Shown: positions 36,073-46,480, counted from the first letter of the stretch. The stretch: 64,000 bases of DNA from Pseudorhodoferax sp. (GCF_047601025.1 NZ_JASGJZ010000001.1:5290691-5354690); one strand, 5' to 3'. Notes: generated by a model not told the origin, from the sequence alone. Numbers and translations are program-made.

Positions 36073-36504
36073 ATGGAGCTCGAGGACCACATCTTCTTTC
36101 TGTGCACCCAGGTGGTGTACCGGCGCGACCGGGCCATCAACGAGGTGCTGCGCCCGCTGGGGCTGCTCAACACCGAATGGCGCACGCTGGGCACGCTGGT
36201 GCACCAGGGGCCGCAGACGATGCAGGCGCTGGCGCAGTGGACCGCCTACGAGCGCACGCGGCTCACCCGCATCCTGCACGGCATGCAGGAGCGCCACTGG
36301 GTCGAGCGCACCGCCGCGGAGCACGACGGCCGCTCGGTGCTGGTGCGCATCGCGCCGCCCGGCCGCGCCGTGTACACCCGGGCCGCGAAGGCGGTCGAAG
36401 CCCTGACGGACGAGGTGCTGGCCGCCTGCACCCCGGCGGAGATCGCGCGGGTGCGCAAGTCGCTGCAGGCCCTGCGCGAGCGGCTGATCGCCTTCGGCTA
36501 CTAG
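36073..36504 (+). CDS. MarR-family transcriptional regulator
   Basis: 143 aa. The wHTH region reads WRTLGTLVHQGPQTMQALAQWTAYERTRLTRILHGMQERHWVERTAAEHDGRSVLVRIAPPG. Confidence 0.9.
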   Translation: MELEDHIFFLCTQVVYRRDRAINEVLRPLGLLNTEWRTLGTLVHQGPQTMQALAQWTAYERTRLTRILHGMQERHWVERTAAEHDGRSVLVRIAPPGRAVYTRAAKAVEALTDEVLAACTPAEIARVRKSLQALRERLIAFGY

Positions 36505-36533
36505 GGCGACCGCCGAGCGCACGGCGGGCAGTG

Positions 36534-36548
36534 CCCCCCCCCGGGGGG
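36534..36548. repeat. Homopolymeric C9-G6 tract (self-complementary)
   Basis: CCCCCCCCCGGGGGG was read directly from the sequence. It sits 30 nt after the marR stop and about 155 nt before the SWIM gene start. Confidence 0.9.
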
Positions 36549-36703
36549 CTTCGGCGCGGAAGGCGATGAATCAATCCGTTCCTCGTCGAATTTTTCAGGG
36601 CTGCCGGCACGGCGGGCCGCGCCAAGCTGGTAGTCTCCACGCCGCGCTGCAGGCGGGGCATCCGACGGGCCGGCGCAGAAGAAGAATCAACGAGGGAGCG
36701 TCG

Positions 36704-38110
36704 GTGTCGAGCGTGTTCGCAACTGAAGCCGAGGTGCTGGCGCTGGCGCCGGACGCGGCATCCGCCAAGGCGGCCAAGGGGCTGCAATCGATCGCCAAAT
36801 GGCCCACCGTGGGCAGCAACGGGGTGGCGGTCTGGGGCGAGTGCCAGGGCAGCGGCAGCAAGCCCTACCAAACCCAGGTCGAGCTGGGCGGGCCGGCTTT
36901 CAAGTGCTCGTGCCCCAGCCGCAAGTTTCCCTGCAAGCACGGGCTGGCGCTGATGCTGCTGCGCGCCAACGGGCAGGTGCCCGAGGCAGGCGAGCCGCCC
37001 GCCTGGGTGAGCCAATGGCTGCAAGGCCGCCAGCAGAAGGCCGAGCAGAAAGAGGCCAAGGCCGCGGCCATCGCCGCCGCGCCCCCGCCCGACCCTGAAA
37101 CGATCGCCCGGCAGCAGGCCCGGCGCGAGGACAAGCGCTGGGACAAGGCCGCCGCCGGCATGCAGGAGCTGTCGCTGTGGCTGCAGGACATGGTGCGCGG
37201 CGGCCTGGCCAACCTGGCCGGTGATGCCCAGGCCCGCGCCCAGTGGCACAACATGGCCGCGCGCATGGTGGATGCCCAGGCCGGCGGCATGTCGGCCCGC
37301 ATCAAGGACGCCTGGGCGCTGGTGGATGGCCATCCCGGCTGGCCGCGGGACCTGCTGGCACAGCTGGGCCATTGGCAGTTGGTGGTGGATGCCGTGCAGC
37401 GCCGCGATGCGCTGCCCGCGCCGGTCAAGGCCGACCTGATGGCGGCCCTGGGCTGGCCGCTGGACAAGGCCGAGGTGCAGGCGCAGGGCGAGCCGCTGAT
37501 GGACGTGTGGCTGGTGGCCGGGTTGCGCACGATGGAACGCGAAGGCCGCCTGCTGGAGCGCCGCGTCTGGCTGCAGGGCGTGCAATCGGGCCGCACGGCG
37601 CTGGTGCTCGACTATTCGCAGGGCGGGCGCGGTTTCGACACGGTGTGGCTGGCGGGCCGGGCCTATGGCTGCGCGCTGCATTTCTACCCGGGCCAGGCGC
37701 CGCTGCGGGCCATCGCGGCCCAGGGCAATGCCGAGGGCCTGCTGCCGGCCGGCGCCGTGCCGCTGGCCATTGAGCAGCCCCTGCAGCAGCTGGGCCGGCG
37801 CATCGCCGCCAACCCGCTGCAGGCCGTGCAGCCGCTGTGGGGCGCACAAGCCGGGCTGCGGTTTGCCGACGGGCAATGGTGGGCGATCTGGGCCGACCCG
37901 CCAGGCGCGGTGCCCGCCGTCATCGACGACGACGAGGCCTGGCACCTGCTGGCGCTGACCGGCGGCGCGCCCATGCTGCTGTTTGGCGAATGGGACATCG
38001 GCCGGGGGCACGGCGGCAGCTGGCGCCTGCTCAGCGCCTGGCAGGCCGATGCAGGCGATGCCGCCGGCACGCGGCAATGCATCTGGCATCACCGCAGCGA
38101 GGTCGCATGA
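36704..38110 (+). CDS. SWIM zinc-finger protein (gene 1 of five-gene operon)
   Basis: GTG at 36704 is preceded by GAGGGAG. SWIM motif CSCPSRKFPCKH (CxC-x7-CxH). A Lys/Glu/Ala-rich linker is followed by a long C-terminal domain. The stop overlaps the next start (ATGA). Confidence 0.8.
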   Translation: MSSVFATEAEVLALAPDAASAKAAKGLQSIAKWPTVGSNGVAVWGECQGSGSKPYQTQVELGGPAFKCSCPSRKFPCKHGLALMLLRANGQVPEAGEPPAWVSQWLQGRQQKAEQKEAKAAAIAAAPPPDPETIARQQARREDKRWDKAAAGMQELSLWLQDMVRGGLANLAGDAQARAQWHNMAARMVDAQAGGMSARIKDAWALVDGHPGWPRDLLAQLGHWQLVVDAVQRRDALPAPVKADLMAALGWPLDKAEVQAQGEPLMDVWLVAGLRTMEREGRLLERRVWLQGVQSGRTALVLDYSQGGRGFDTVWLAGRAYGCALHFYPGQAPLRAIAAQGNAEGLLPAGAVPLAIEQPLQQLGRRIAANPLQAVQPLWGAQAGLRFADGQWWAIWADPPGAVPAVIDDDEAWHLLALTGGAPMLLFGEWDIGRGHGGSWRLLSAWQADAGDAAGTRQCIWHHRSEVA

Positions 38111-39903
38111 GCACCGCCCGGCCGCCCGAAGGGGCTGATTCCCTCCCGGAGGGACCGGGCCGCAGGCCCGAAGGTGCACCGATGAACAGTGGACGAATCT
38201 GGGCTGCGTTGCAGCAATCGGCCATGGTGGGCGCGGATCGCCTGCCCGTGCCGCAGGTCTTCATGCAGGGCGTGGATGGTTCAGCGCCGGCCAGCGAGCG
38301 GGCGTTGCGGGCCGCGCTCACGGCACCCGCCAGTTCGCCCGCCGAGCAGTTGCTGCGCGCCAGCGCCGTCGCCGCCGTACTGGAGCGCGCGGGCTGGGCG
38401 CCGCAGCCCGTCCCGGCCGCGCAGGCGGCACCGCCCGCCCCGGCCGAGACGCGCCCCGAGCCCGAGGACGCACGCCTGCTGGCCCTGATGCGCGAGGTGC
38501 TGCAGGACGGCCCGCAGGACCTGCTGGCCCCGATGTGCGCGGCACTGGACCGGGCCGGGCTGCGCCTGCCCCACGGCATGCTGGTCGAGGCGCTGGAGCA
38601 GGGGCGCCAGTCCGTCGCGCTGCGCCCCTGGCTGACGCCGGTGCTGGGCGAGCGCGGGCGCTGGCTGGCCGCGCTCAACCCGCCATGGGGCTATGCCCAC
38701 GGCGTGCAGGAAACCGCCGACCCCGACCAGGTGTGGCAGGAAGGCTCGCTGGACCAGCGCGTGGCCCTGCTGCACGGCGAGCGCGAGGCCGACCCGGCCA
38801 AGGCCCGAGCACGCCTGGAGGCCAGCCTGAAGGAGCTGGGCGCCAAGGAGCGTTTGCCGATGGTGCAGGCGCTGGCGCAAGGCCTGTCGATGGACGACGA
38901 ACCGCTGCTGGACAAGCTGCTGTCCGACCGCAGCAAGGACGTGCGCGACGCCGCCGCGCGCCTGCTGTCCTGCCTGCCCGGCAGCGCCCATTGCCAGCGC
39001 ATCACCGGCTGGCTGCTGCCCATGCTCACCCGCCACGAGAAGACGGGCATCGGCAACTGGCTGAAATCCGTGCTGACCAAGAACGCCCAGGACGACTGGA
39101 CGATCGAGCCGCCCGAAGAAGGCTTGCAGGACTGGGAGCGCGACGGCATCACGCTGCAGCCGCCTTCATGGTTCAGGGGCGTCACGGCCGGCGTCAAGGC
39201 CTGGTGGCTGCAGCAGTTCGCCGAGTTGGCACCCCTCGGCTTCTGGACCCGGACCCTGGGCAAGACGCCGGCCGAGCTGTGGGCATGGAGCGGCCGCAGC
39301 GACTGGAAAACCTCGCTGCGCCAGGGTTGGCTGGCGGCGCTGGGCTACCAGAGCCGCTTCCAGCGCGACGAGGGCGAGGGCTGGCTGCAGCTGCTGCTGG
39401 GCATGCAGCGCAATGCGCAGGCCGAGGCCGCGTCGGCCACGCTGCTGGCCCAGCTCACCCCCGCGCAGCGCGAGGCCGTGTGGCTGGCCCAGGTCGAGCG
39501 CGACAAGGGCCGCCTGGTCGACACCATCCTGGGCATCGACAACGGCCTGCCGGCCGCGGCACGGCTCTCGCCCGCGCTGTCCGCTCGCCTGGTCGATGAA
39601 ATCGGCCGGGCCACGGCGGGCAGCGGCCAGGCCACCGGCAACTGGTACGGCTACCAGGCCGACCAGGCCCTGCTGGCCTGTGCGCGCCGGCTCGACACCG
39701 GCACGCTGCCGCGCTTTGCGCAGCTGTGGCGCCAGGCCAGGCCCGTGGCGCCCGAAGCCGACACGCCCGCCACGCTCACGCCCGAACAGCACGACAAGCT
39801 GGTGCGCGCCCGGCACCGGCCCTGGGACGACGAGCGCCTGCGCGTCCGGCTGGAGCGCAGCGTCGAGTTGCGCCTTGCCCTGCACCAGACACTGAACCCC
39901 TGA
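38107..39903 (+). CDS. Helical-repeat (HEAT-like) protein, DUF5691-type partner (gene 2)
   Basis: 598 aa, Ala/Leu-rich. HEAT-like segment LLSDRSKDVRDAAARLLSCLPGS. Its position between the SWIM and AAA genes matches the architecture I recall as SWIM/DUF5691/AAA/DUF5682/VWA. Confidence 0.6.
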   Translation: MSTARPPEGADSLPEGPGRRPEGAPMNSGRIWAALQQSAMVGADRLPVPQVFMQGVDGSAPASERALRAALTAPASSPAEQLLRASAVAAVLERAGWAPQPVPAAQAAPPAPAETRPEPEDARLLALMREVLQDGPQDLLAPMCAALDRAGLRLPHGMLVEALEQGRQSVALRPWLTPVLGERGRWLAALNPPWGYAHGVQETADPDQVWQEGSLDQRVALLHGEREADPAKARARLEASLKELGAKERLPMVQALAQGLSMDDEPLLDKLLSDRSKDVRDAAARLLSCLPGSAHCQRITGWLLPMLTRHEKTGIGNWLKSVLTKNAQDDWTIEPPEEGLQDWERDGITLQPPSWFRGVTAGVKAWWLQQFAELAPLGFWTRTLGKTPAELWAWSGRSDWKTSLRQGWLAALGYQSRFQRDEGEGWLQLLLGMQRNAQAEAASATLLAQLTPAQREAVWLAQVERDKGRLVDTILGIDNGLPAAARLSPALSARLVDEIGRATAGSGQATGNWYGYQADQALLACARRLDTGTLPRFAQLWRQARPVAPEADTPATLTPEQHDKLVRARHRPWDDERLRVRLERSVELRLALHQTLNP

Positions 39904-39929
39904 CTTCCTGAATCCGAGCCCGACACACC

Positions 39930-41012
39930 ATGAGCCAAGTCCTGCGCCAACACGCCGAACAGCAATTCGCCGAAGAACTCGACGCCCTGCAGAAGGTGGA
40001 CGACCGTCCGCGCCCGCCCAACTGGAAGCTCTCGCCCTGGGCCGTGCTGCAGTACCTGATGGGCGGCAAGCTCTCCAACGGCTTCGAGGTCAGCGCCAAG
40101 TACATCGGCAACCCGCGCCTGATGGAGATCGCCGTCTCCACCCTGGCCACCGACCGCGCGCTGCTGCTCTACGGCGTGCCGGGCACGGCCAAGTCCTGGG
40201 TGTCCGAGCACCTGTCGGCCGCGGTCAGCGGTGACTCGACGATGCTGATCCAGGGCACGGCCGGCACCAGCGAGGAGCAACTGCGCTACGGCTGGAACTA
40301 TGCGCAGCTGCTGGCCCACGGCCCGTCCGACAAGGCGCTGATCCCCAGCCCGCTGGTCAACGCGATGCGGCTGGGCAAGATCGCGCGCATCGAGGAGCTG
40401 ACGCGCATCCCGGCCGACGTGCAGGACACCTTGATCACCGTGCTGTCCGAAAAGACCTTGCCCGTGCCCGAGCTGGGCACCGAGTTCCAGGCGGTCTCGG
40501 GCTTCTCGGTCATCGCCACGGCCAACAACCGCGACAAGGGCGTCAACGAGCTGTCGAGCGCGCTCAAGCGCCGTTTCAACACCGTGGTGCTGCCGGTGCC
40601 GGCCTCGCAGGACGAGGAGGTGCAGATCGTCACCAAGCGCGTGACCGAGCAGGGCCGCGCGCTGCAGCTGCCGGCCGAGCCGCCCGCGCTACAGGAGGTG
40701 CGCCGCGTGGTGCAGATCTTCCGCGAGCTGCGCAGCGGCCAGACCGAGGACGGCAAGACCGTGCGCGTCAAGTCGCCCAGTTCCACGCTGTCCACCGCCG
40801 AGGCGATCTCGGTCATCAACAGCGGCATGGCGCTGGCCGGCCACTTTGGCGACGGCGTGCTGCGCGCGGCCGACGTGGCCTCGGGCCTGCTGGGCGCGGT
40901 CATCAAGGACCCGGTGCAGGACACCGTGGTGTGGAAGGAATACCTGGAGACCGTGGTCAAGGAACGCAGCGACTGGAGAGACCTGTACCGGGCCTGCCGC
41001 GAGCAGCTGTAA
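39930..41012 (+). CDS. MoxR-class AAA+ ATPase (AAA_5/dynein-related type) (gene 3)
   Basis: Walker A LLYGVPGTAKS, Walker B-like GKIARIEELTR. Sensor and Arg-finger region VIATANNRDKGVNELSSALKRRF. 360 aa. Confidence 0.85.
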   Translation: MSQVLRQHAEQQFAEELDALQKVDDRPRPPNWKLSPWAVLQYLMGGKLSNGFEVSAKYIGNPRLMEIAVSTLATDRALLLYGVPGTAKSWVSEHLSAAVSGDSTMLIQGTAGTSEEQLRYGWNYAQLLAHGPSDKALIPSPLVNAMRLGKIARIEELTRIPADVQDTLITVLSEKTLPVPELGTEFQAVSGFSVIATANNRDKGVNELSSALKRRFNTVVLPVPASQDEEVQIVTKRVTEQGRALQLPAEPPALQEVRRVVQIFRELRSGQTEDGKTVRVKSPSSTLSTAEAISVINSGMALAGHFGDGVLRAADVASGLLGAVIKDPVQDTVVWKEYLETVVKERSDWRDLYRACREQL

Positions 41013-41016
41013 GCCG

Positions 41017-43500
41017 ATGAGCGACGACGCACTGCGTTTCTTCGGCATCCGCCACCACGGCCCGGGCTGCGCGCGCAGCCTGCTGGCGGCGCTGGCGCAA
41101 TGGCAGCCCGACTGCCTGCTGGTCGAAGGCCCGGCCGAGGGCGAGGCGCTGCTGCCCATGCTGCAAAGCCCCGAGCTGCGCCCGCCGGTGGCCATGCTGG
41201 TCTACCGGCAGGACGAGCCCAGCCACGCGGCCTTCTACCCGTTTGCCGAGTTCTCGCCCGAATGGCAGGCGCTGCAATGGGCCAGCCGCCAGGGCGTGGC
41301 CACGCGCTTCATCGACCTGCCGCAGACCCACGCGATGGCGCTGGAAATGCAGCGGCGCGAACAGCTGGAACAAGCAAGGGCACAGGAAAAAAAGAACGCG
41401 CAGGAAGGCGAGGATCACCACGACGAGGCCGACCTCACCCCCGATGACACGCTGCGCGACCCGCTGGACTGGCTGGCCCATGCCGCCGGCTTCCAGGACG
41501 GCGAAAGCTGGTGGAACCGCATGGTGGAAGAGCGCGGCGACAGCGAGGCCCTGTTCGAAGGCATCACCGAGGCCATGACGGCCGTGCGCGCCGAAATCGA
41601 CCAGGACAGCGCGCAGGACAACGGGCATTGGCGCGGCGAGGCCTATGCCCGCCGCGAGGCGCTGCGCGAGGCCTGGATGCGCCAGTGCATCCGCGAAGCA
41701 CTGAAGGCCGGCCACCAGCGCATTGCCGTGGTCTGCGGCGCCTGGCACGTGCCGGCGCTCAAGGCCAGCGTCACGGCCAAGGCCGACGCCGCCTTGCTCA
41801 AGGGCCTGCCCAAGGCCAAGGTGCAGGCCACCTGGGCGCCGTGGACCTACCGCAACCTGGCCAGCAGCAGCGGCTACGGCGCGGGCGTCACCTCACCCGG
41901 CTGGTACGAGCACCTGTGGCAATGCCACCGGCCCCACCTGCCGGCGCCAGACGGAGAAGCCGGCACAAGCACGGCGAGCGCCGCCACCCTGCGCACCGCC
42001 GGCTGGCTGACGCGCGTGGCGCGCCTGCTGCGCAGCAAGGACCTGGACTGCTCCAGCGCCCACGTCATCGAGGCCACGCGCCTGGCCGAGAGCCTGGCCG
42101 CCCTGCGCGGCCAGCCCACGCCAGGGCTGCAGGAGATCAACGAGGCCATCGGCACGGTGATCTGCATGGGCGAGAGCGCGCCGCTGCGCCTGATCGAGCA
42201 CGAGCTGACCGTGGGCGACGTGCTGGGCGCCGTGCCCGCCGACGTGCCCCAGGTGCCGCTGCAACGCGACATCGAGCAGCAGCAGAAAACCCTGCGCCTC
42301 AAGCCCGAGCCGGCCGCCAAGCTGCTGGCGCTGGACCTGCGCAAGGACACCGACCTGGCGCGCAGCCACTTCCTGCACCGGCTGCGGCTGCTGGGCATCG
42401 CCTGGGGCACGCAGGCGCGCGATGCCCAGCGCAGCCGCGGCACCTTCCGCGAGAGCTGGCAACTGCAATGGGCGCCCGAGCTGGCCGTGCGCATCATCGA
42501 GGCCAGCGTGCACGGCGCCACCGTGGCCCAGGCCGCCACGGCCCGGCTGCGCGCCAGCCTGACGCCCGAGACGCCGCTGCCCCAGATCGCCCAGGCCATC
42601 GACGATGCGCTGCTGGCCGACCTGCCCGCGCTGGTCGAAGCCCTGATCGCCACGCTGGCCGAGCGCGCCGCCACCACCGGCGACGTGGCCCAGCTGCTGC
42701 AGGCCCTGCCGCCGCTGGCCAGCGTCTACCGCTACGGCAGCGTGCGCCAGACCGACACCGCCTTGCTGGCCACGGTGATCGACTCGCTGGCGCTGCGTGC
42801 CGCCATCGCCCTGCCCGTGGCCTGCATGGCCATGGACGAGGACGCCGCCGCCGCCATGCAGGCCAAGGTGCTGGCCGCGCACGAGGCGCTGCGCCTGCGC
42901 GGCGACGGCGATGGCAACAGCCGTGACGACAGCGGCAACGGTGACGACGACGAGCCCGCACAGGACGCCGGCCAGGCCTGGCGCGCCGCGCTGCGCAGCC
43001 TGGCCGTGGGCGACGCAGCGGCGGCCCGGCTGCGCGGCATGGCCTGCCGCCTGCTGCTGGACGAGCACCTGCTGGGCAGCGGCGAGGCCGTGGCCCAGTT
43101 CAACCGCAACCTGTCGCTGGGCGTGGCGCCCATGGACGTGGCCGCCTGGCTGGACGGCTTCCTGAACCGCCAGGCGCTGGTGCTGCTGCACGACGACGCC
43201 ATCTCGGGCGCGGTGGACACCTGGCTCACGCAGCTGGGCGAGGCGCAGTTCGCGCAGATCCTGCCGCTGGTGCGGCGCAGCTTTTCCGACTTCAGCAAGC
43301 ACGACCGCCAGCGCCTGGGTGAGAAGGTCAAGCGCTCGCCCAGCCCGGGCGCCGCCACCGCCGTGGCCATGGCGCCCGCGCCGGCCGGCGACGAAACCCC
43401 GCCCTGGGACGAACCGCGCGCCGCACTCGCCCTGCCGGTGCTCGGCCAGTTGCTGGGCTTGGCCTTTTCTTCAGAAGCATCCACCATGGATAACCCATGA
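41017..43500 (+). CDS. Large DUF5682-type protein with N-terminal TraB/PrgY/GumN-like domain (gene 4)
   Basis: 827 aa, starting 4 nt after the AAA stop. N-terminal motifs FFGIRHHGPG...PDCLLVEGP, FAEFSPEWQAL...ATRFIDLP, REALREAWM and IAVVCGAWHVPAL. The C-terminal ~570 aa are Ala/Leu-rich and helical. The stop overlaps the vWA start. Confidence 0.65.
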   Translation: MSDDALRFFGIRHHGPGCARSLLAALAQWQPDCLLVEGPAEGEALLPMLQSPELRPPVAMLVYRQDEPSHAAFYPFAEFSPEWQALQWASRQGVATRFIDLPQTHAMALEMQRREQLEQARAQEKKNAQEGEDHHDEADLTPDDTLRDPLDWLAHAAGFQDGESWWNRMVEERGDSEALFEGITEAMTAVRAEIDQDSAQDNGHWRGEAYARREALREAWMRQCIREALKAGHQRIAVVCGAWHVPALKASVTAKADAALLKGLPKAKVQATWAPWTYRNLASSSGYGAGVTSPGWYEHLWQCHRPHLPAPDGEAGTSTASAATLRTAGWLTRVARLLRSKDLDCSSAHVIEATRLAESLAALRGQPTPGLQEINEAIGTVICMGESAPLRLIEHELTVGDVLGAVPADVPQVPLQRDIEQQQKTLRLKPEPAAKLLALDLRKDTDLARSHFLHRLRLLGIAWGTQARDAQRSRGTFRESWQLQWAPELAVRIIEASVHGATVAQAATARLRASLTPETPLPQIAQAIDDALLADLPALVEALIATLAERAATTGDVAQLLQALPPLASVYRYGSVRQTDTALLATVIDSLALRAAIALPVACMAMDEDAAAAMQAKVLAAHEALRLRGDGDGNSRDDSGNGDDDEPAQDAGQAWRAALRSLAVGDAAAARLRGMACRLLLDEHLLGSGEAVAQFNRNLSLGVAPMDVAAWLDGFLNRQALVLLHDDAISGAVDTWLTQLGEAQFAQILPLVRRSFSDFSKHDRQRLGEKVKRSPSPGAATAVAMAPAPAGDETPPWDEPRAALALPVLGQLLGLAFSSEASTMDNP

Positions 43501-44711
43501 GCGACGCGACCTCGACCGCCTCACCCGACCAGGACCCGGCCCAGGAGCTGCCACCCACCACGCGCCTGCAACGCTGGCGCATGGTGCTGGGCAGCCCGGC
43601 CGACATCAGCTGCGGCGGCGTGGCCGGCCGCCTGCAGGAGATGGACCAGGCACTGGCCGCGCTGTACGAGGAAGACAGCCAGCTCGGCGCGCGCAAATCC
43701 CGCACCGGCGGGCGCGGCAACTCGTCACCCACCGTATCGCGCTGGCTGGGCGACATCCGCAAGTACTTTCCCAGCCAGGTGGTGCAGGTGATGCAGCGCG
43801 ACGCCATGGAGCGCCTGAACCTGCGCGAGCTGCTGCTGCAGCCCGAGATGCTGGACAACGTGCAGCCCGACGTGCACCTGGTGGCCGACCTGATCTCGCT
43901 GGGCTCGGTGATCCCGCAGAACACCAAGGCCACCGCGCGCCTGGTGGTGCGCAAGGTGGTCGACGAGCTGATGAAACGGCTGGAAGAACCCATGCGCAGC
44001 GCCGTGGCCGGCGCGCTGGACCGCAGCCAGCGCAACCGCCGCCCACGCCACGCCGAGATCGACTGGAACCGCACCATCCGCGCCAACCTGCGCCACTGGC
44101 AGCCCGAGTACAAGACCATCGTGCCCGAGACGCTGATCGGCTACGGCCGCAAGGCGCGCCGCCCGCAGCGCGAGGTGATCCTGTGCATCGACCAGAGCGG
44201 CTCCATGGCCAACTCGGTCGTGTACGCCAGCATCTTCGGCGCGGTGATGGCCAGCCTGCCGGCCGTCTCCACCAAGCTGGTGGTGTTCGACACCGCGGTG
44301 GTCGACCTGACCGACCAGCTCGACGACCCGGTGGACGTGCTGTTCGGCGTGCAACTGGGCGGCGGCACCGACATCAACGGCGCCGTCGGCTACTGCCAGG
44401 GCCTGATCAGCGAGCCGCGCAACAGCATCCTGGTGCTGATCTCCGACCTGTACGAAGGCGGCGTCGAATCAGGCCTGCTGCGCCGCGCCAACGAGCTGGT
44501 CGAGTCCGGCGTGCAGTTCATCACCCTGCTGGCCCTGAGCGACGAAGGCGCCCCCGCCTACGACGCCGAGCTGGCCGCCAAGCTGGCCGCCCTGGGCGTG
44601 CCCTCGTTCGCCTGCACCCCCGACGCCTTCCCCCAACTCATGGCCGCCGCCATCCGCCGCGACGACGTGGCCGCCTGGGCTGCGACGCAGGGGTTCAAGA
44701 CGAGCCGGTAG
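43497..44711 (+). CDS. CoxE-like von Willebrand factor A (vWA) domain protein (gene 5)
   Basis: The MIDAS motif VILCIDQSGSM and downstream GGGTD/ISDLYEG elements lie in the C-terminal half. The N-terminal helical region is typical of CoxE-type vWA partners of MoxR ATPases. Confidence 0.85.
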   Translation: MSDATSTASPDQDPAQELPPTTRLQRWRMVLGSPADISCGGVAGRLQEMDQALAALYEEDSQLGARKSRTGGRGNSSPTVSRWLGDIRKYFPSQVVQVMQRDAMERLNLRELLLQPEMLDNVQPDVHLVADLISLGSVIPQNTKATARLVVRKVVDELMKRLEEPMRSAVAGALDRSQRNRRPRHAEIDWNRTIRANLRHWQPEYKTIVPETLIGYGRKARRPQREVILCIDQSGSMANSVVYASIFGAVMASLPAVSTKLVVFDTAVVDLTDQLDDPVDVLFGVQLGGGTDINGAVGYCQGLISEPRNSILVLISDLYEGGVESGLLRRANELVESGVQFITLLALSDEGAPAYDAELAAKLAALGVPSFACTPDAFPQLMAAAIRRDDVAAWAATQGFKTSR

Positions 44712-44763
44712 CCGGGCCGACCGATCACGGTCGAGTAGCTAGGCCATTCGGCTTCGCCCTCAC

Positions 44764-44797
44764 AGATCCGAGCATGCGGCTTTCCCGCACTCGGCTC
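44764..44797 (-). ncRNA. Group II intron domain V-like hairpin
   Basis: The minus strand reads GAGCCGAGUGCGG-GAAA-GCCGCAUGCUCGGAUC. The canonical form is GAGCCGUAUGCGGUGAAAGCCGCACGUACGGUUC. An AGC triad, a GAAA tetraloop and nearly complete pairing are all present. Confidence 0.65.
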
Positions 44798-44816
44798 TTC
44801 CCGAAGGTCTGACGCG

Positions 44817-45692
44817 TCATATACGTTGCTGTGCCCAAGAACGAGTGATCCGCACCGATGGCAGAGGGTAGCGCGCTGTCACTGCGTCAAACCAGTCCCA
44901 TCCTGCGCTGCGAGATCGCTGGCTGCGTCGTCGCAAACAGGTGAACCAGATCCGTCGCAGCGCCTGCCGGAACCCGGCTAGAGATCGCCAGTTGTGTGGC
45001 ATGCCGTAGTACGCGCAGTGGCCGCGCAGCACGCTGACGTACCAGCGATGCTGGTACGTCAGGGGGGCATGCATGCGGCGCCACGCGTCACGGCGAAGCT
45101 CGTTCAACTTGCGAGTCATGCGCTTGCTCTGCGTCTTGTGCTTCACGATGAATCGCCCGTCCCTTGTCCATCCACAGTAGTGTGTGAAACCCAGGAAGGC
45201 GAACGTACGGGGTCTTGGCAAACCGGCTCTAGCACAGGCAAGCGCCGTCAGGCGCCCGAAGGCAATCAGCCGAGTCTTCTCCTCATGCAACGTCAGGCCA
45301 AACTGGTTCAGCCTGACCTTCAGTTCGACCACCATCTTCTCCGCATCGGCCTTGCTCTCAAATCCCGTCACGAAATCGTCGGCGTAGCGCACGATGCTCA
45401 CACGGCCGCGCGCGTGACGCCGCCGCCATTGATGGACCCAGAGGTCGAGCACGTAGTGCAGGAAGATGTTGGCCAGCAACGGGCTGATGCCCTCGCCTTG
45501 AGGTGTTCCCCTTTGCGTTTCATGCAACTCATTGCTCTCGAAGACGCCAGCCTCCAGCCACATCCTGATCAGTCTCAGAATGCGCGGATCGGCAATCCTG
45601 TGTACCACCATCCGCATCAGCCACTCGTGGTCAACCGAGTCGAAGAGGCTACGGATGTCGGCGTCGAGCACCCAGTTCATTCGCTGGCTCAT
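44817..45692 (-). pseudogene. Group II intron reverse transcriptase/maturase, N-terminally truncated
   Basis: WVLDADIRSLFDSVDH, GTPQGEGISPLLANIFLH, VRYADDFV, and an X/maturase-like C-terminus (FLGFTHYCG...YYGMPHN). The in-frame homology continues upstream of the Met to about 45780, then stops at the IS256 fragment. Confidence 0.8.
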
Positions 45693-45786: not shown

Positions 45787-46480
45787 TCAGCGAGCCACAG
45801 CGGACAGCCGAGTGGGGGCAGTGTCGCTCAGGGCCTGCAGGCCTTCAAGTTGCATGTAGCGCCGGTTGAGCGACCACTCGTCGTTCTGCTCGAGCATCAT
45901 GGCGCCGACCAGGCGCACGATGGACGCGTCGTTGGGAAAGATGCCCACGACGTTGGTGCGCCGCTTGATCTCGGCATTGAGCCGCTCCAGCGGATTGGTG
46001 CTGTAGATCTGCGTCCAGTGCGCCCGCGGGAAGGTCATGAAGGCCAGCACGTCGTTCTCGGCCTCGTCCATCACGGCACTGAGCTTGGGGAACTTGTCCC
46101 GTAGTTGACCGGCCACCGATCTCCACTGCGCCCGGGCCGCCTCGGCAGACTCCTGCACGAACACCGTGCCGATGGCCGCCGAGACCATGCGCCGCTGGGT
46201 CTTGCCGGCGTGCGCCAGGGCGTTGCGCATGAAGTGCACGCGGCAGCGCTGCCAGGTGGCCTTCAGGACCTTGGAGGCGGCCGCCTTGATGCCTTCGTGG
46301 CTGTCGCTGATGAGCAGCTTGACCCCGCGCAGGCCGCGCCGGTTCAGGCTGCGCTAGGCGCTCGGTCCAGAACGGCTCGGCTTCCGAGGCGCCGACCTTC
46401 AGACCCGACACCTCGCGCTGCCCGTCGGTGTTCACGCCGCCAGCGCTCCGCAGCGGCATCCGCCGCCAGGGCCTCAACCC
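45787..46480 (-). pseudogene. IS256-family transposase, N-terminally truncated and frameshifted
   Basis: The C-terminal 150 aa are intact (CRVHFMRNALAHAGK...YSTNPLERLNAEIKRRTNVVGIFPN). Upstream homology continues (RRGLRGVKLLISDSHEGIKAA) up to a stop near 46345. Still further upstream, a third frame carries GVNTDGQREVSGLKVGASEAEPFWTE. The first ~200 aa are missing. Confidence 0.8.

Follow-up and report, generated by a model that had tools for sequence, protein, structure and literature searches.

The stretch of DNA analysed here, a window of 64,000 nucleotides (nt) from Pseudorhodoferax sp. (Comamonadaceae) to which all coordinates refer, carries on its plus strand (36704-44711) a five-gene operon with the products, denoted g1 to g5 from 5' to 3', SWIM / DUF5691 / MoxR AAA_5 / DUF5682 / VWA_CoxE. 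The reading tentatively preferred, with a confidence somewhat short of an even chance, is that this operon represents the YehL-class MoxR system in an intact copy of "type A" and encodes a five-protein, ATP-driven remodelling machine that includes a latent hydrolase. The five genes form a compact unit that is kept as a block across phyla, and the AAA+ ATPase (YehL), the DUF5682 protein (YehM) and the VWA protein (YehP) make up its invariant core. This core comes with a SWIM protein and with a HEAT-like helical protein, which belongs to DUF5691 here and to DUF4132 in the second version of the system, type B (see below). A hydrophobic segment typical of a membrane span is found in none of the five proteins, and the machine is predicted to be cytoplasmic. 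The genes, with the profile matches of their products (lengths in amino acids, aa), are the following.

36704-38110, plus strand: g1, SWIM zinc-finger protein, 468 aa (Pfam SWIM, E = 1.9e-5)
38107-39903, plus strand: g2, DUF5691 (PF18944) helical protein, 598 aa from ATG 38107 (E = 2e-110)
39930-41012, plus strand: g3, MoxR-class AAA+ ATPase of the YehL subfamily, 360 aa (AAA_5, PF07728, E = 1.1e-36, whole profile)
41017-43500, plus strand: g4, DUF5682 (PF18934) or YehM-type protein, 827 aa (E = 1.9e-257, profile positions 2-727 of 727)
43497-44711, plus strand: g5, CoxE-type VWA protein, 404 aa (VWA_CoxE, PF05762, E = 8e-53, 179.6 bits against a cut-off of 26.4)

All five genes are full length and tightly packed, their motifs are intact, and their translations contain no internal stop codons between start and stop. 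Because their third-position GC is 0.86-0.95 (GC3 filter) in a window of ~70% GC, they are considered real genes. The g1/g2 and g4/g5 junctions are ATGA stop/start overlaps (38107-38110 and 43497-43500, respectively), g3 and g4 are separated by a 4-nt gap at 41013-41016 (TAA-GCCG-ATG, 41010-41019), and a 26-nt spacer (39904-39929) lies between g2 and the ATG of g3 at 39930; no terminator-like site was found on the plus strand within 36704-44711. An earlier note on this DNA had described five co-directional reading frames with these overlaps and gaps, all of which are borne out by the sequence read. Its descriptions of gene 1 as carrying a SWIM finger, of gene 2 as helical and HEAT-like, of gene 3 as a MoxR-class AAA+ ATPase and of gene 5 as a CoxE-like VWA protein with an intact metal ion-dependent adhesion site (MIDAS) agree with the matches listed above and with the motifs, invariant residues and repeat-protein match given below.

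The DUF5682 family comprises 4252 clusters at 50% identity (E <= 1e-3; 1222 at E <= 1e-30), and a scan of one genome per species with two DUF5682 peptide patterns yielded at least 593 confirmed matches, the best 80 of which were taken for the analysis of loci. These 80 loci come from Beta- and Gammaproteobacteria, Desulfovibrionaceae, Cyanobacteria, Chloroflexota, Bacteroidota, Acidobacteriota, Planctomycetota, Verrucomicrobiota, Deinococcota, Actinomycetota, Clostridia and Myxococcota, and the five-gene block is spread over at least 12 phyla. Iterated hidden Markov models built from the window proteins detected homologues of g1, g2, g3 and g5 in 66, 71, 77 and 74 sources, respectively. In 61 loci, the flanks of the DUF5682 gene extend over at least 5 kb upstream and at least 1.4 kb downstream; of these, 54 carry all five genes on one strand in the order of the window, and 58 keep the AAA+, DUF5682 and VWA genes. 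In two Streptomyces loci, g1 and g2 are in a divergent unit. The statement in the earlier note that this order recurs in unrelated bacteria was correct, and the annotation it gave (SWIM / DUF5691 / AAA / DUF5682 / VWA) matches the Pfam assignments exactly. No other recurrent neighbour was found among the clusters of flanking open reading frames (ORFs) of ~60 loci, the largest cluster being generic ABC transporters in 12 loci, which agrees with the proposal that no client enzyme is encoded nearby. Pfam assigns the 108 nearest neighbours (two ORFs per side, 27 loci) mostly to ordinary transport and metabolism, and PADLOC matches at E <= 1e-10 are few among them. Since the five genes are kept together and no other neighbour recurs, the operon is a self-contained five-gene module in variable surroundings, and it is not a resident of defence islands.

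The core is also encoded in the yeh cluster of Escherichia coli K-12, yehI-(yehK)-yehL-yehM-yehP-yehQ. Over its full length (350 aa), g3 is 39% identical to YehL (E = 8e-78); g4 and YehM, both DUF5682 proteins, share 28% identity (E = 2e-39), and g5 and YehP, both VWA_CoxE proteins, 36% (E = 1e-85). The operon, to which the earlier note assigned no function, is not an anonymous system, given that genes 3-5 are homologues of YehL, YehM and YehP and that YehL is one of seven listed MoxR subfamilies (PMC3893208). In the K-12 region (2196474-2204289), yehF, encoding a WGR protein, the molR-like pseudogene yehH and yehI, encoding a DUF4132 protein of 1210 aa, precede yehL, and YehQ belongs to the SWIM proteins. 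E. coli shares its order DUF4132-AAA-DUF5682-VWA-SWIM, type B, with a Bacillus mycoides plasmid, and type B is therefore a conserved five-part system too, with DUF4132 replacing DUF5691. Both the operon and the yeh cluster have the AAA-DUF5682-VWA order, a protein with an N-terminal SWIM finger and a large HEAT-like helical protein. However, the SWIM and helical genes are upstream here, whereas in E. coli the DUF4132 gene comes first and the SWIM gene last; the helical proteins (DUF5691 here, DUF4132 there) show no detectable homology (hhalign E = 0.03); g1 and YehQ are similar in the SWIM region only, and comparison of g1 and g2 with YehQ by hhalign gave nothing significant; and both the WGR and the DUF4132 genes are absent from the window. 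In Chitinophaga, a complete type A operon is followed by a DUF4132/HEAT protein. Of 5426 complete E. coli genomes, 5353 (98.7%) contain the yehLMPQ genes, single copy and chromosomal, and the genes are core in this species. Expression of yehL and yehM is upregulated in hns/stpA mutants (PMC3686432), and the zorO type I toxin locus adjoins yehL/yehM (PMC12795559). In a prediction study on +1 frameshifts, yehP is named 39 times (PMC2790909).

The ATPase g3 has a Walker A motif, GVPGTAKS (nt 40173-40196), a sensor-1 motif, ATANN (40515-40529), and an arginine pair, RRF (ALKRRF, 40560-40577), all conserved among the g3 homologues of related loci. Its Walker-B-like motif, IARIEE (nt 40380-40397), ends in Glu-Glu, whereas the canonical Walker B (hhhhDE) ends in Asp-Glu; the Glu-Glu pair is at least 90% conserved in 75 sequences and is found likewise in E. 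coli YehL (VRFEE), so it is probably a trait of the YehL subfamily. Midasin and NorQ are the sequence relatives of g3 in the PDB, and the Pfam model bpMoxR matches it below threshold (21.1 bits against a 27-bit cut-off) and in the P-loop region only. In g5, a ~165-aa N-terminal region precedes the VWA domain, with which the protein ends, leaving no C-terminal effector domain. The MIDAS is complete (DQSGS, nt 44190-44204; GGGTD, 44358-44372; SDLYEGG, 44439-44462), and in 71 sequences its residues reach at least 90% conservation; a search for PDB sequence matches of g5 gave none. Across phyla, both g3 and g5 retain long stretches that are at least 90% identical.

The largest of the five subunits is g4, which is 100% identical to a "DUF5682 family protein" on record for Pseudorhodoferax sp. 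In its AlphaFold2 model (predicted local distance difference test, pLDDT, 83.1; predicted template modelling score, pTM, 0.76), an N-terminal alpha/beta part (aa 1-305) is followed by a mixed middle part (~320-500) and a C-terminal alpha-solenoid (~500-815). The invariant residues of the protein, as seen in 37 diverse family members, concentrate in the N-terminal domain.

41017-41931, plus strand: g4 N-domain, aa 1-305, putative TIKI/TraB/erythromycin-esterase-like hydrolase fold
41044-41058, 41116-41133 and 41251-41265, plus strand: invariant motifs GIRHH, LLVEGP and FSPEW, respectively, of the N-domain alignment
41308-41322, 41665-41679 and 41734-41748, plus strand: invariant motifs FIDLP, REAWM and CGAWH, respectively, of the same alignment

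Residues G10, R12, H13, H14, E37, E82, D100, E171, R191, R217, E218, M221, G241 and H244 are invariant in DUF5682, as judged on 37 and 29 diverse sequences, among them E. coli YehM. This set of invariant His, Glu and Arg residues, a new observation here, appears typical of a hydrolase, and the description of the partner proteins as three non-enzymatic-looking ones has to be revised for one of them, g4. The order GxxH ... E ... RExxM ... GxxH in g4 is what we take to be the signature of TIKI, TraB and erythromycin esterases. The active site of the TIKI superfamily is a 2His/2Glu set (PMC6254334), and H13/H14, E37, E82/E218 and H244 of g4 follow, by sequence order alone, the order expected for such a set.

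A Foldseek search with the full-length model returned generic helical-repeat matches only and, because these swamped the search, the N-domain was modelled alone (pLDDT 83.6), giving a predicted alpha/beta core with parallel strands. Its long Foldseek matches are 7w5z_E (a subunit of Tetrahymena complex IV), EreC (6xcs), Bcr135 (2rad/3b55) and HopBA1 (5t09). Tetrahymena complex IV includes a TraB-family protein (PMC10060162), which is probably the subunit matched; Bcr135 and HopBA1 are listed in the TIKI superfamily, and Ere-family enzymes are reported to share the active-site architecture (PMC6254334). The fold of the modelled N-domain is likely to be of the TIKI/TraB/erythromycin-esterase type, and the TraB/GumN-like N-terminus that the earlier note had seen in gene 4 finds some, albeit weak, backing in the fold search (E = 0.018-2.4, template modelling (TM) score ~0.3). 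With the TIKI/TraB/PrgY/erythromycin-esterase/ChaN superfamily, g4 appears to share the predicted alpha/beta core, the motif order and the long structural matches; unlike in that superfamily, the domain is fused to a ~500-aa helical extension within an AAA+ operon, and there is no sequence-profile link. To our knowledge, neither such an extension nor such an operon context has been described for TIKI proteins. Within the N-domain, aa 104-147 form a disordered, acidic insert that is present in every homologue, measuring 15-77 aa across DUF5682 with a median net charge of -5. Ten unusually long DUF5682 proteins were inspected for domain fusions, of which none was informative; their surplus length is acidic insert.

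Several points weigh against a gated hydrolase. The structural matches of the N-domain are weak, with Foldseek probabilities of 0.09-0.8 at the E values and TM scores given above. Comparison of 29 N-domains with Pfam at E <= 10 returned DUF5682 only, with no TraB, Ere or ChaN family; the N-domain profile found no TraB/Ere-family match in the PDB, its matches being none or at chance level (E > 1), and neither g4 alone nor the g4 profile had a PDB sequence relative. For such a hydrolase, the invariant His and Glu residues would have to come together in one pocket. ChaN is a haem-binding protein of the TIKI fold. Some other TIKI-fold proteins, for example PMT, are also non-catalytic binders (PMC6254334). 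Furthermore, g3 departs from the Asp-Glu Walker B, the complex, its ATPase activity and the co-transcription of the five genes are predictions, and no pointer to a substrate was found.

The two remaining proteins appear to form the input side of the system. In g1, the Cys/His motif CSCPSRKFPCKH (aa 68-79, nt 36905-36940) includes the invariant C68, C70, C77 and H79, which make up a C-x-C-x6-C-x-H finger close to the N-terminus. SWIM was matched in 29 of the 29 orthologues scanned with Pfam, and no further Pfam family recurs in the C-terminal ~300 aa of these orthologues; the search of the PDB with the g1 profile gave no match or matches at chance level (E > 1). For g2, HEAT-type repeats were found at ~aa 229-293 (nt 38791-38985), and the profile of 28 orthologues matches designed HEAT/alphaRep proteins (4xl5_C, E = 4.7e-4). 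On a plasmid of Hymenobacter sp. HDW8 (locus L088, 3204-6233), g1 and g2 are fused into a single ORF of 1009 aa, for which the RefSeq name is only "DUF5691 domain-containing protein". Because of this fusion, g1 and g2 are considered to act as a pair, in which g1 is proposed to be a targeting or sensor subunit and g2 a scaffold.

A latent hydrolase under the control of the ATPase is proposed because g4 has a TIKI/TraB/erythromycin-esterase-like domain with invariant His, Glu and Arg residues, and its gating because the g3-g4-g5 trio fits a scheme of motor, largest subunit and adaptor. Recent structures reveal mechanics that MoxR-VWA machines have in common: in NorQD, a VWA element is found inside the pore of the hexamer (PMC13036017), and in CobSTN the working largest subunit binds the adaptor on the face that points away from the ring (10.64898/2026.07.21.739949). 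If NorQ-NorD and CobS-CobT-CobN are taken as models, a g3 hexamer would be the motor and the VWA/MIDAS protein g5 the adaptor that plugs into the ring, and the placement of a VWA element in the pore, as in NorQ-NorD, is likely to be shared. The largest protein, g4, would sit on the g5 adaptor and be the object of remodelling, such that ATP hydrolysis by g3, passed via g5, would open or close the latent g4 hydrolase, a protease or an esterase. The acidic disordered insert of g4 could be a handle for remodelling, and the g1-g2 SWIM-HEAT pair would recruit the substrate or sense a trigger. Beyond the conserved trio, the g1-g2 pairing and the conserved motifs, we infer the contacts, the catalytic activity and the substrate of this scheme.

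A different explanation, possible but rather improbable, is that the five proteins mature a client encoded elsewhere in the genome, as a MoxR-VWA chaperone of the classical type, with DUF5682 as a ChaN-like donor of metal or tetrapyrrole, or as an insertase, and the SWIM and HEAT proteins as assembly scaffolds. The haem binding mentioned above for ChaN would suit such a donor, and ChaN is counted in the TIKI superfamily (PMC6254334). The characterised MoxR-VWA pairs reviewed here, CoxD/E, NorQ/D, CobS/T, BchI/D and RavA/ViaA, all act as maturation chaperones (PMC3893208, PMC7159879, PMC13036017). Like NorQ-NorD, CoxD-CoxE and CbbQ-CbbO, the operon combines an AAA_5 MoxR motor with a MIDAS-bearing VWA protein; g5 is specifically CoxE-type, and NorQ is, as noted, among the PDB sequence relatives of g3. 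With its succession of motor, large subunit and adaptor, the operon resembles the chelatases CobS-CobT-CobN and BchI-BchD-BchH, with their hexameric motor, VWA adaptor and largest subunit opposite the ring. The core, single-copy status of the genes in 5353 of the 5426 E. coli genomes, the extreme conservation of the AAA and VWA proteins between phyla and the HSP90-family genes in a Variovorax operon and beside a Chitinophaga one (see below) also fit a chaperone. However, the nor, cox and cbb systems adjoin the genes of their clients, as do cob and bch, whereas no client enzyme is linked to the operon here or in the ~60 related neighbourhoods; specifically, the client genes of CoxD/CoxE, NorQ/NorD, CbbQ/CbbO and RavA/ViaA (cox, nor, cbb/rubisco and ldcI/nuo/frd) are not in the flanks of the operon in the window. 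NorQ-NorD, CoxD-CoxE and CbbQ-CbbO have no DUF5682, SWIM or DUF5691 partners, and the SWIM and HEAT proteins are without counterpart in known maturation systems. Unlike the largest subunits of the chelatases, g4 gave no CobN/BchH-like domain in the Pfam scan, and the operon differs from them further in its two extra obligatory partners and in the absence of a tetrapyrrole pathway context. Finally, the invariant His/Glu/Arg pattern of g4 looks catalytic rather than merely metal-binding.

Several loci deviate from the standard composition. In a metagenome-assembled genome (MAG) of Trueperaceae (L062, 8482-17475), the order is AAA-DUF5682-NADAR-VWA, followed by a WD40 protein of 1127 aa, and neither a SWIM nor a DUF5691 gene was found in this 22-kb locus, possibly reflecting an exchange of the input module. 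In Variovorax (L002, 1-9959, and L004), a paralogue of HSP90 (HATPase_c_3 + HSP90) is encoded between the AAA and DUF5682 genes and another one upstream, and a 780-aa protein without a Pfam match is encoded beside the inserted paralogue; in a Chitinophaga MAG (L053, 4019-5905), an HSP90 paralogue lies directly upstream of the SWIM gene. In two cyanobacterial loci (L015, 9143-9724; L020, 9322-9903), a 194-aa ORF separates the AAA gene from the DUF5682 gene; in L020 it encodes a putative endonuclease of the Uma2 family. Downstream of DUF5682, a VWA gene was not found in L020, and the contig of L015 ends just past DUF5682, so that at least some cyanobacteria have a looser form of the operon. In the alignment, the type A DUF5682 N-domain of a MAG labelled Citrobacter freundii (L051) is nearest to Chitinophaga sequences, which suggests either that the contig was binned wrongly or that a transfer from Bacteroidota took place recently.

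The partners of the core raise the question of a link to nucleic acids. SWIM occurs in DNA-associated proteins and can also mediate protein-protein contacts, and NADAR is linked to ADP-ribose processing. It is conceivable, although decidedly improbable, that the system is a remodeller in which SWIM and, in type B, WGR/DUF4132 target damaged or modified DNA, or a protein bound to DNA, for removal or processing. Apart from the NADAR gene inside the Trueperaceae operon, the genes that precede the E. coli cluster, yehF (WGR), molR-like yehH and yehI (DUF4132), point in this direction, as does the operon linkage of DUF4132 in Bacillus and Chitinophaga. In Deinococcus radiodurans, dr2173 (WGR) and drA0166 (DUF4132) are reported to be strongly upregulated on depletion of DdrO, and E. 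coli molR has been described as a member of the LexA regulon (10.1101/2021.07.07.451423). These are associations only, however, and come from few lineages. The window contains no WGR or DUF4132 gene, a search of the window and of the E. coli region for LexA boxes gave no perfect one, and the SWIM finger may instead serve contacts between proteins.

Immediately downstream of the operon, the window contains remnants of mobile elements.

44730-44799, minus strand: group II intron domain V/VI RNA (RF00029, 53.7 bits), beginning 19 nt past the g5 stop
44817-45692, minus strand: truncated intron reverse transcriptase, 291 aa (only RVT_1 positions 67-204 matched; 5' side missing)
45787-46239, minus strand: C-terminal fragment of a Mutator/IS256-family transposase (profile positions 255-377 of 379)

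The GC content of the window falls from ~0.72 to ~0.65 beyond ~44 kb, which suggests a junction with foreign or rearranged DNA. The mobile-element debris reported by the earlier note is thus real. That such debris would point to a defence or mobile island is not supported in general, given that the operon has ordinary metabolic neighbours elsewhere and that the E. coli version is core. An origin of the operon as remnant or cargo of the neighbouring group II intron or insertion sequence (IS) was rejected, as the five genes occur in most loci without such elements.

The debris nevertheless bears on a further explanation, which is regarded as quite unlikely, that of a nucleoside triphosphate-gated conflict or surveillance system with a SWIM/HEAT or WD40 sensor, a MoxR-VWA threshold switch and DUF5682 as a TIKI-like effector protease. 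Such a role would fit a self-contained module with a patchy distribution over at least 12 phyla and variable neighbourhoods, with intron and IS remnants adjoining the operon in the window. Plasmid copies in Methylosinus and Hymenobacter lie near toxin-antitoxin genes, recombinases, IS elements or a PDDEXK nuclease, and the putative Uma2 endonuclease interrupts at least one cyanobacterial copy. Between lineages, sensor-like partners replace one another, DUF5691 for DUF4132 or, in Trueperaceae, for the WD40 giant and NADAR. In E. coli, yehL and yehM are silenced by H-NS/StpA (PMC3686432), and the TIKI fold includes the toxins RRSP and HopBA1 (PMC6254334). The ternary MoxR-vWA conflict systems (PMC7159879) also share with the operon a core of MoxR and CoxE-derived vWA proteins and HEAT-like or WD40 sensor or scaffold parts. 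In contrast to these systems, the operon has no VMAP/iSTAND component, its vWA protein, g5, is without a C-terminal effector domain, and its context is not defence-like, the nearest neighbours at the 27 loci being ordinary transport and metabolic genes with few PADLOC matches. The survey of MoxR-vWA conflict systems makes no mention of this system, of SWIM or of YehL (PMC7159879), and the bpMoxR match of g3 is below threshold. No specific PADLOC match was obtained for any of the five proteins: in PADLOC-DB v2, g3 had marginal P-loop matches to IetA only (E = 0.003-0.008) and the other four proteins had nothing. The genes are core in E. coli, only 34 of 72,556 plasmid records, for the most part those of very large replicons, contain the system, and in phages a single doubtful record was found, a scan of viral contigs and of a phage collection having given nothing credible.

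On the other side of the operon, the intergenic region contains the presumed promoter.

36505-36703, plus strand: intergenic region upstream of g1, with GAGGGAG before GTG 36704; presumed operon promoter region

The start of g1 is probably GTG 36704, which is preceded by the Shine-Dalgarno-like GAGGGAG; in NCBI the protein has 465 aa, 3 residues below the 468-aa reading from 36704. For g2, ATG 38107 and ATG 38182 are the candidate starts. No sigma-70 consensus was found in the sequence upstream of g1. A gene for a MarR-family regulator (36073-36504, plus strand) lies directly upstream of the operon on the same strand, with a C9/G6 palindrome at 36533-36550 between it and g1; no conserved upstream regulator was found among the other loci. 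The flanks of the operon in the window encode, along with MarR, an FAD oxidase, an NMT1-like protein and acyl-CoA enzymes.

Few AAA+ machines are as poorly understood as the MoxR-VWA pairs. The components of the present system are already catalogued under Pfam DUF numbers, RefSeq names and the yeh designations of E. coli, the YehL subfamily having been listed among the MoxR subfamilies since at least 2014 (PMC3893208), and the copy in the window is one of thousands. Profile searches of the five proteins against Pfam and the PDB, as proposed in the earlier note, brought out no characterised pathway with a known client, and an NCBIfam scan gave nothing specific. As that note had supposed, no experimental characterisation of the five-gene order was found in the literature searched, in which DUF5682, DUF5691 and their Pfam numbers are unmentioned and no functional study of yehLMPQ was found. 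The operon differs from every characterised MoxR-VWA machine by its three dedicated partners, one of them with a likely, as modelled, hydrolase fold. The most far-reaching version of the gated-hydrolase reading, a previously unrecognised ATP-gated TIKI/TraB-type hydrolase, kept from E. coli K-12 to a dozen phyla and unlocked by a MoxR ring and a MIDAS adaptor, with a swappable SWIM and HEAT-like (DUF5691 or DUF4132/WGR) sensor and a DNA-bound or damage-associated target, constituting a new stress or surveillance pathway, is considered unlikely. The analysis nonetheless turns a set of DUF labels into a model that is testable in a tractable organism, E. coli K-12. If the hydrolase idea is true, the system would provide the first TIKI-family enzyme controlled by an AAA+/MIDAS machine, as far as known, and a function for four uncharacterised genes of E. 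coli K-12.

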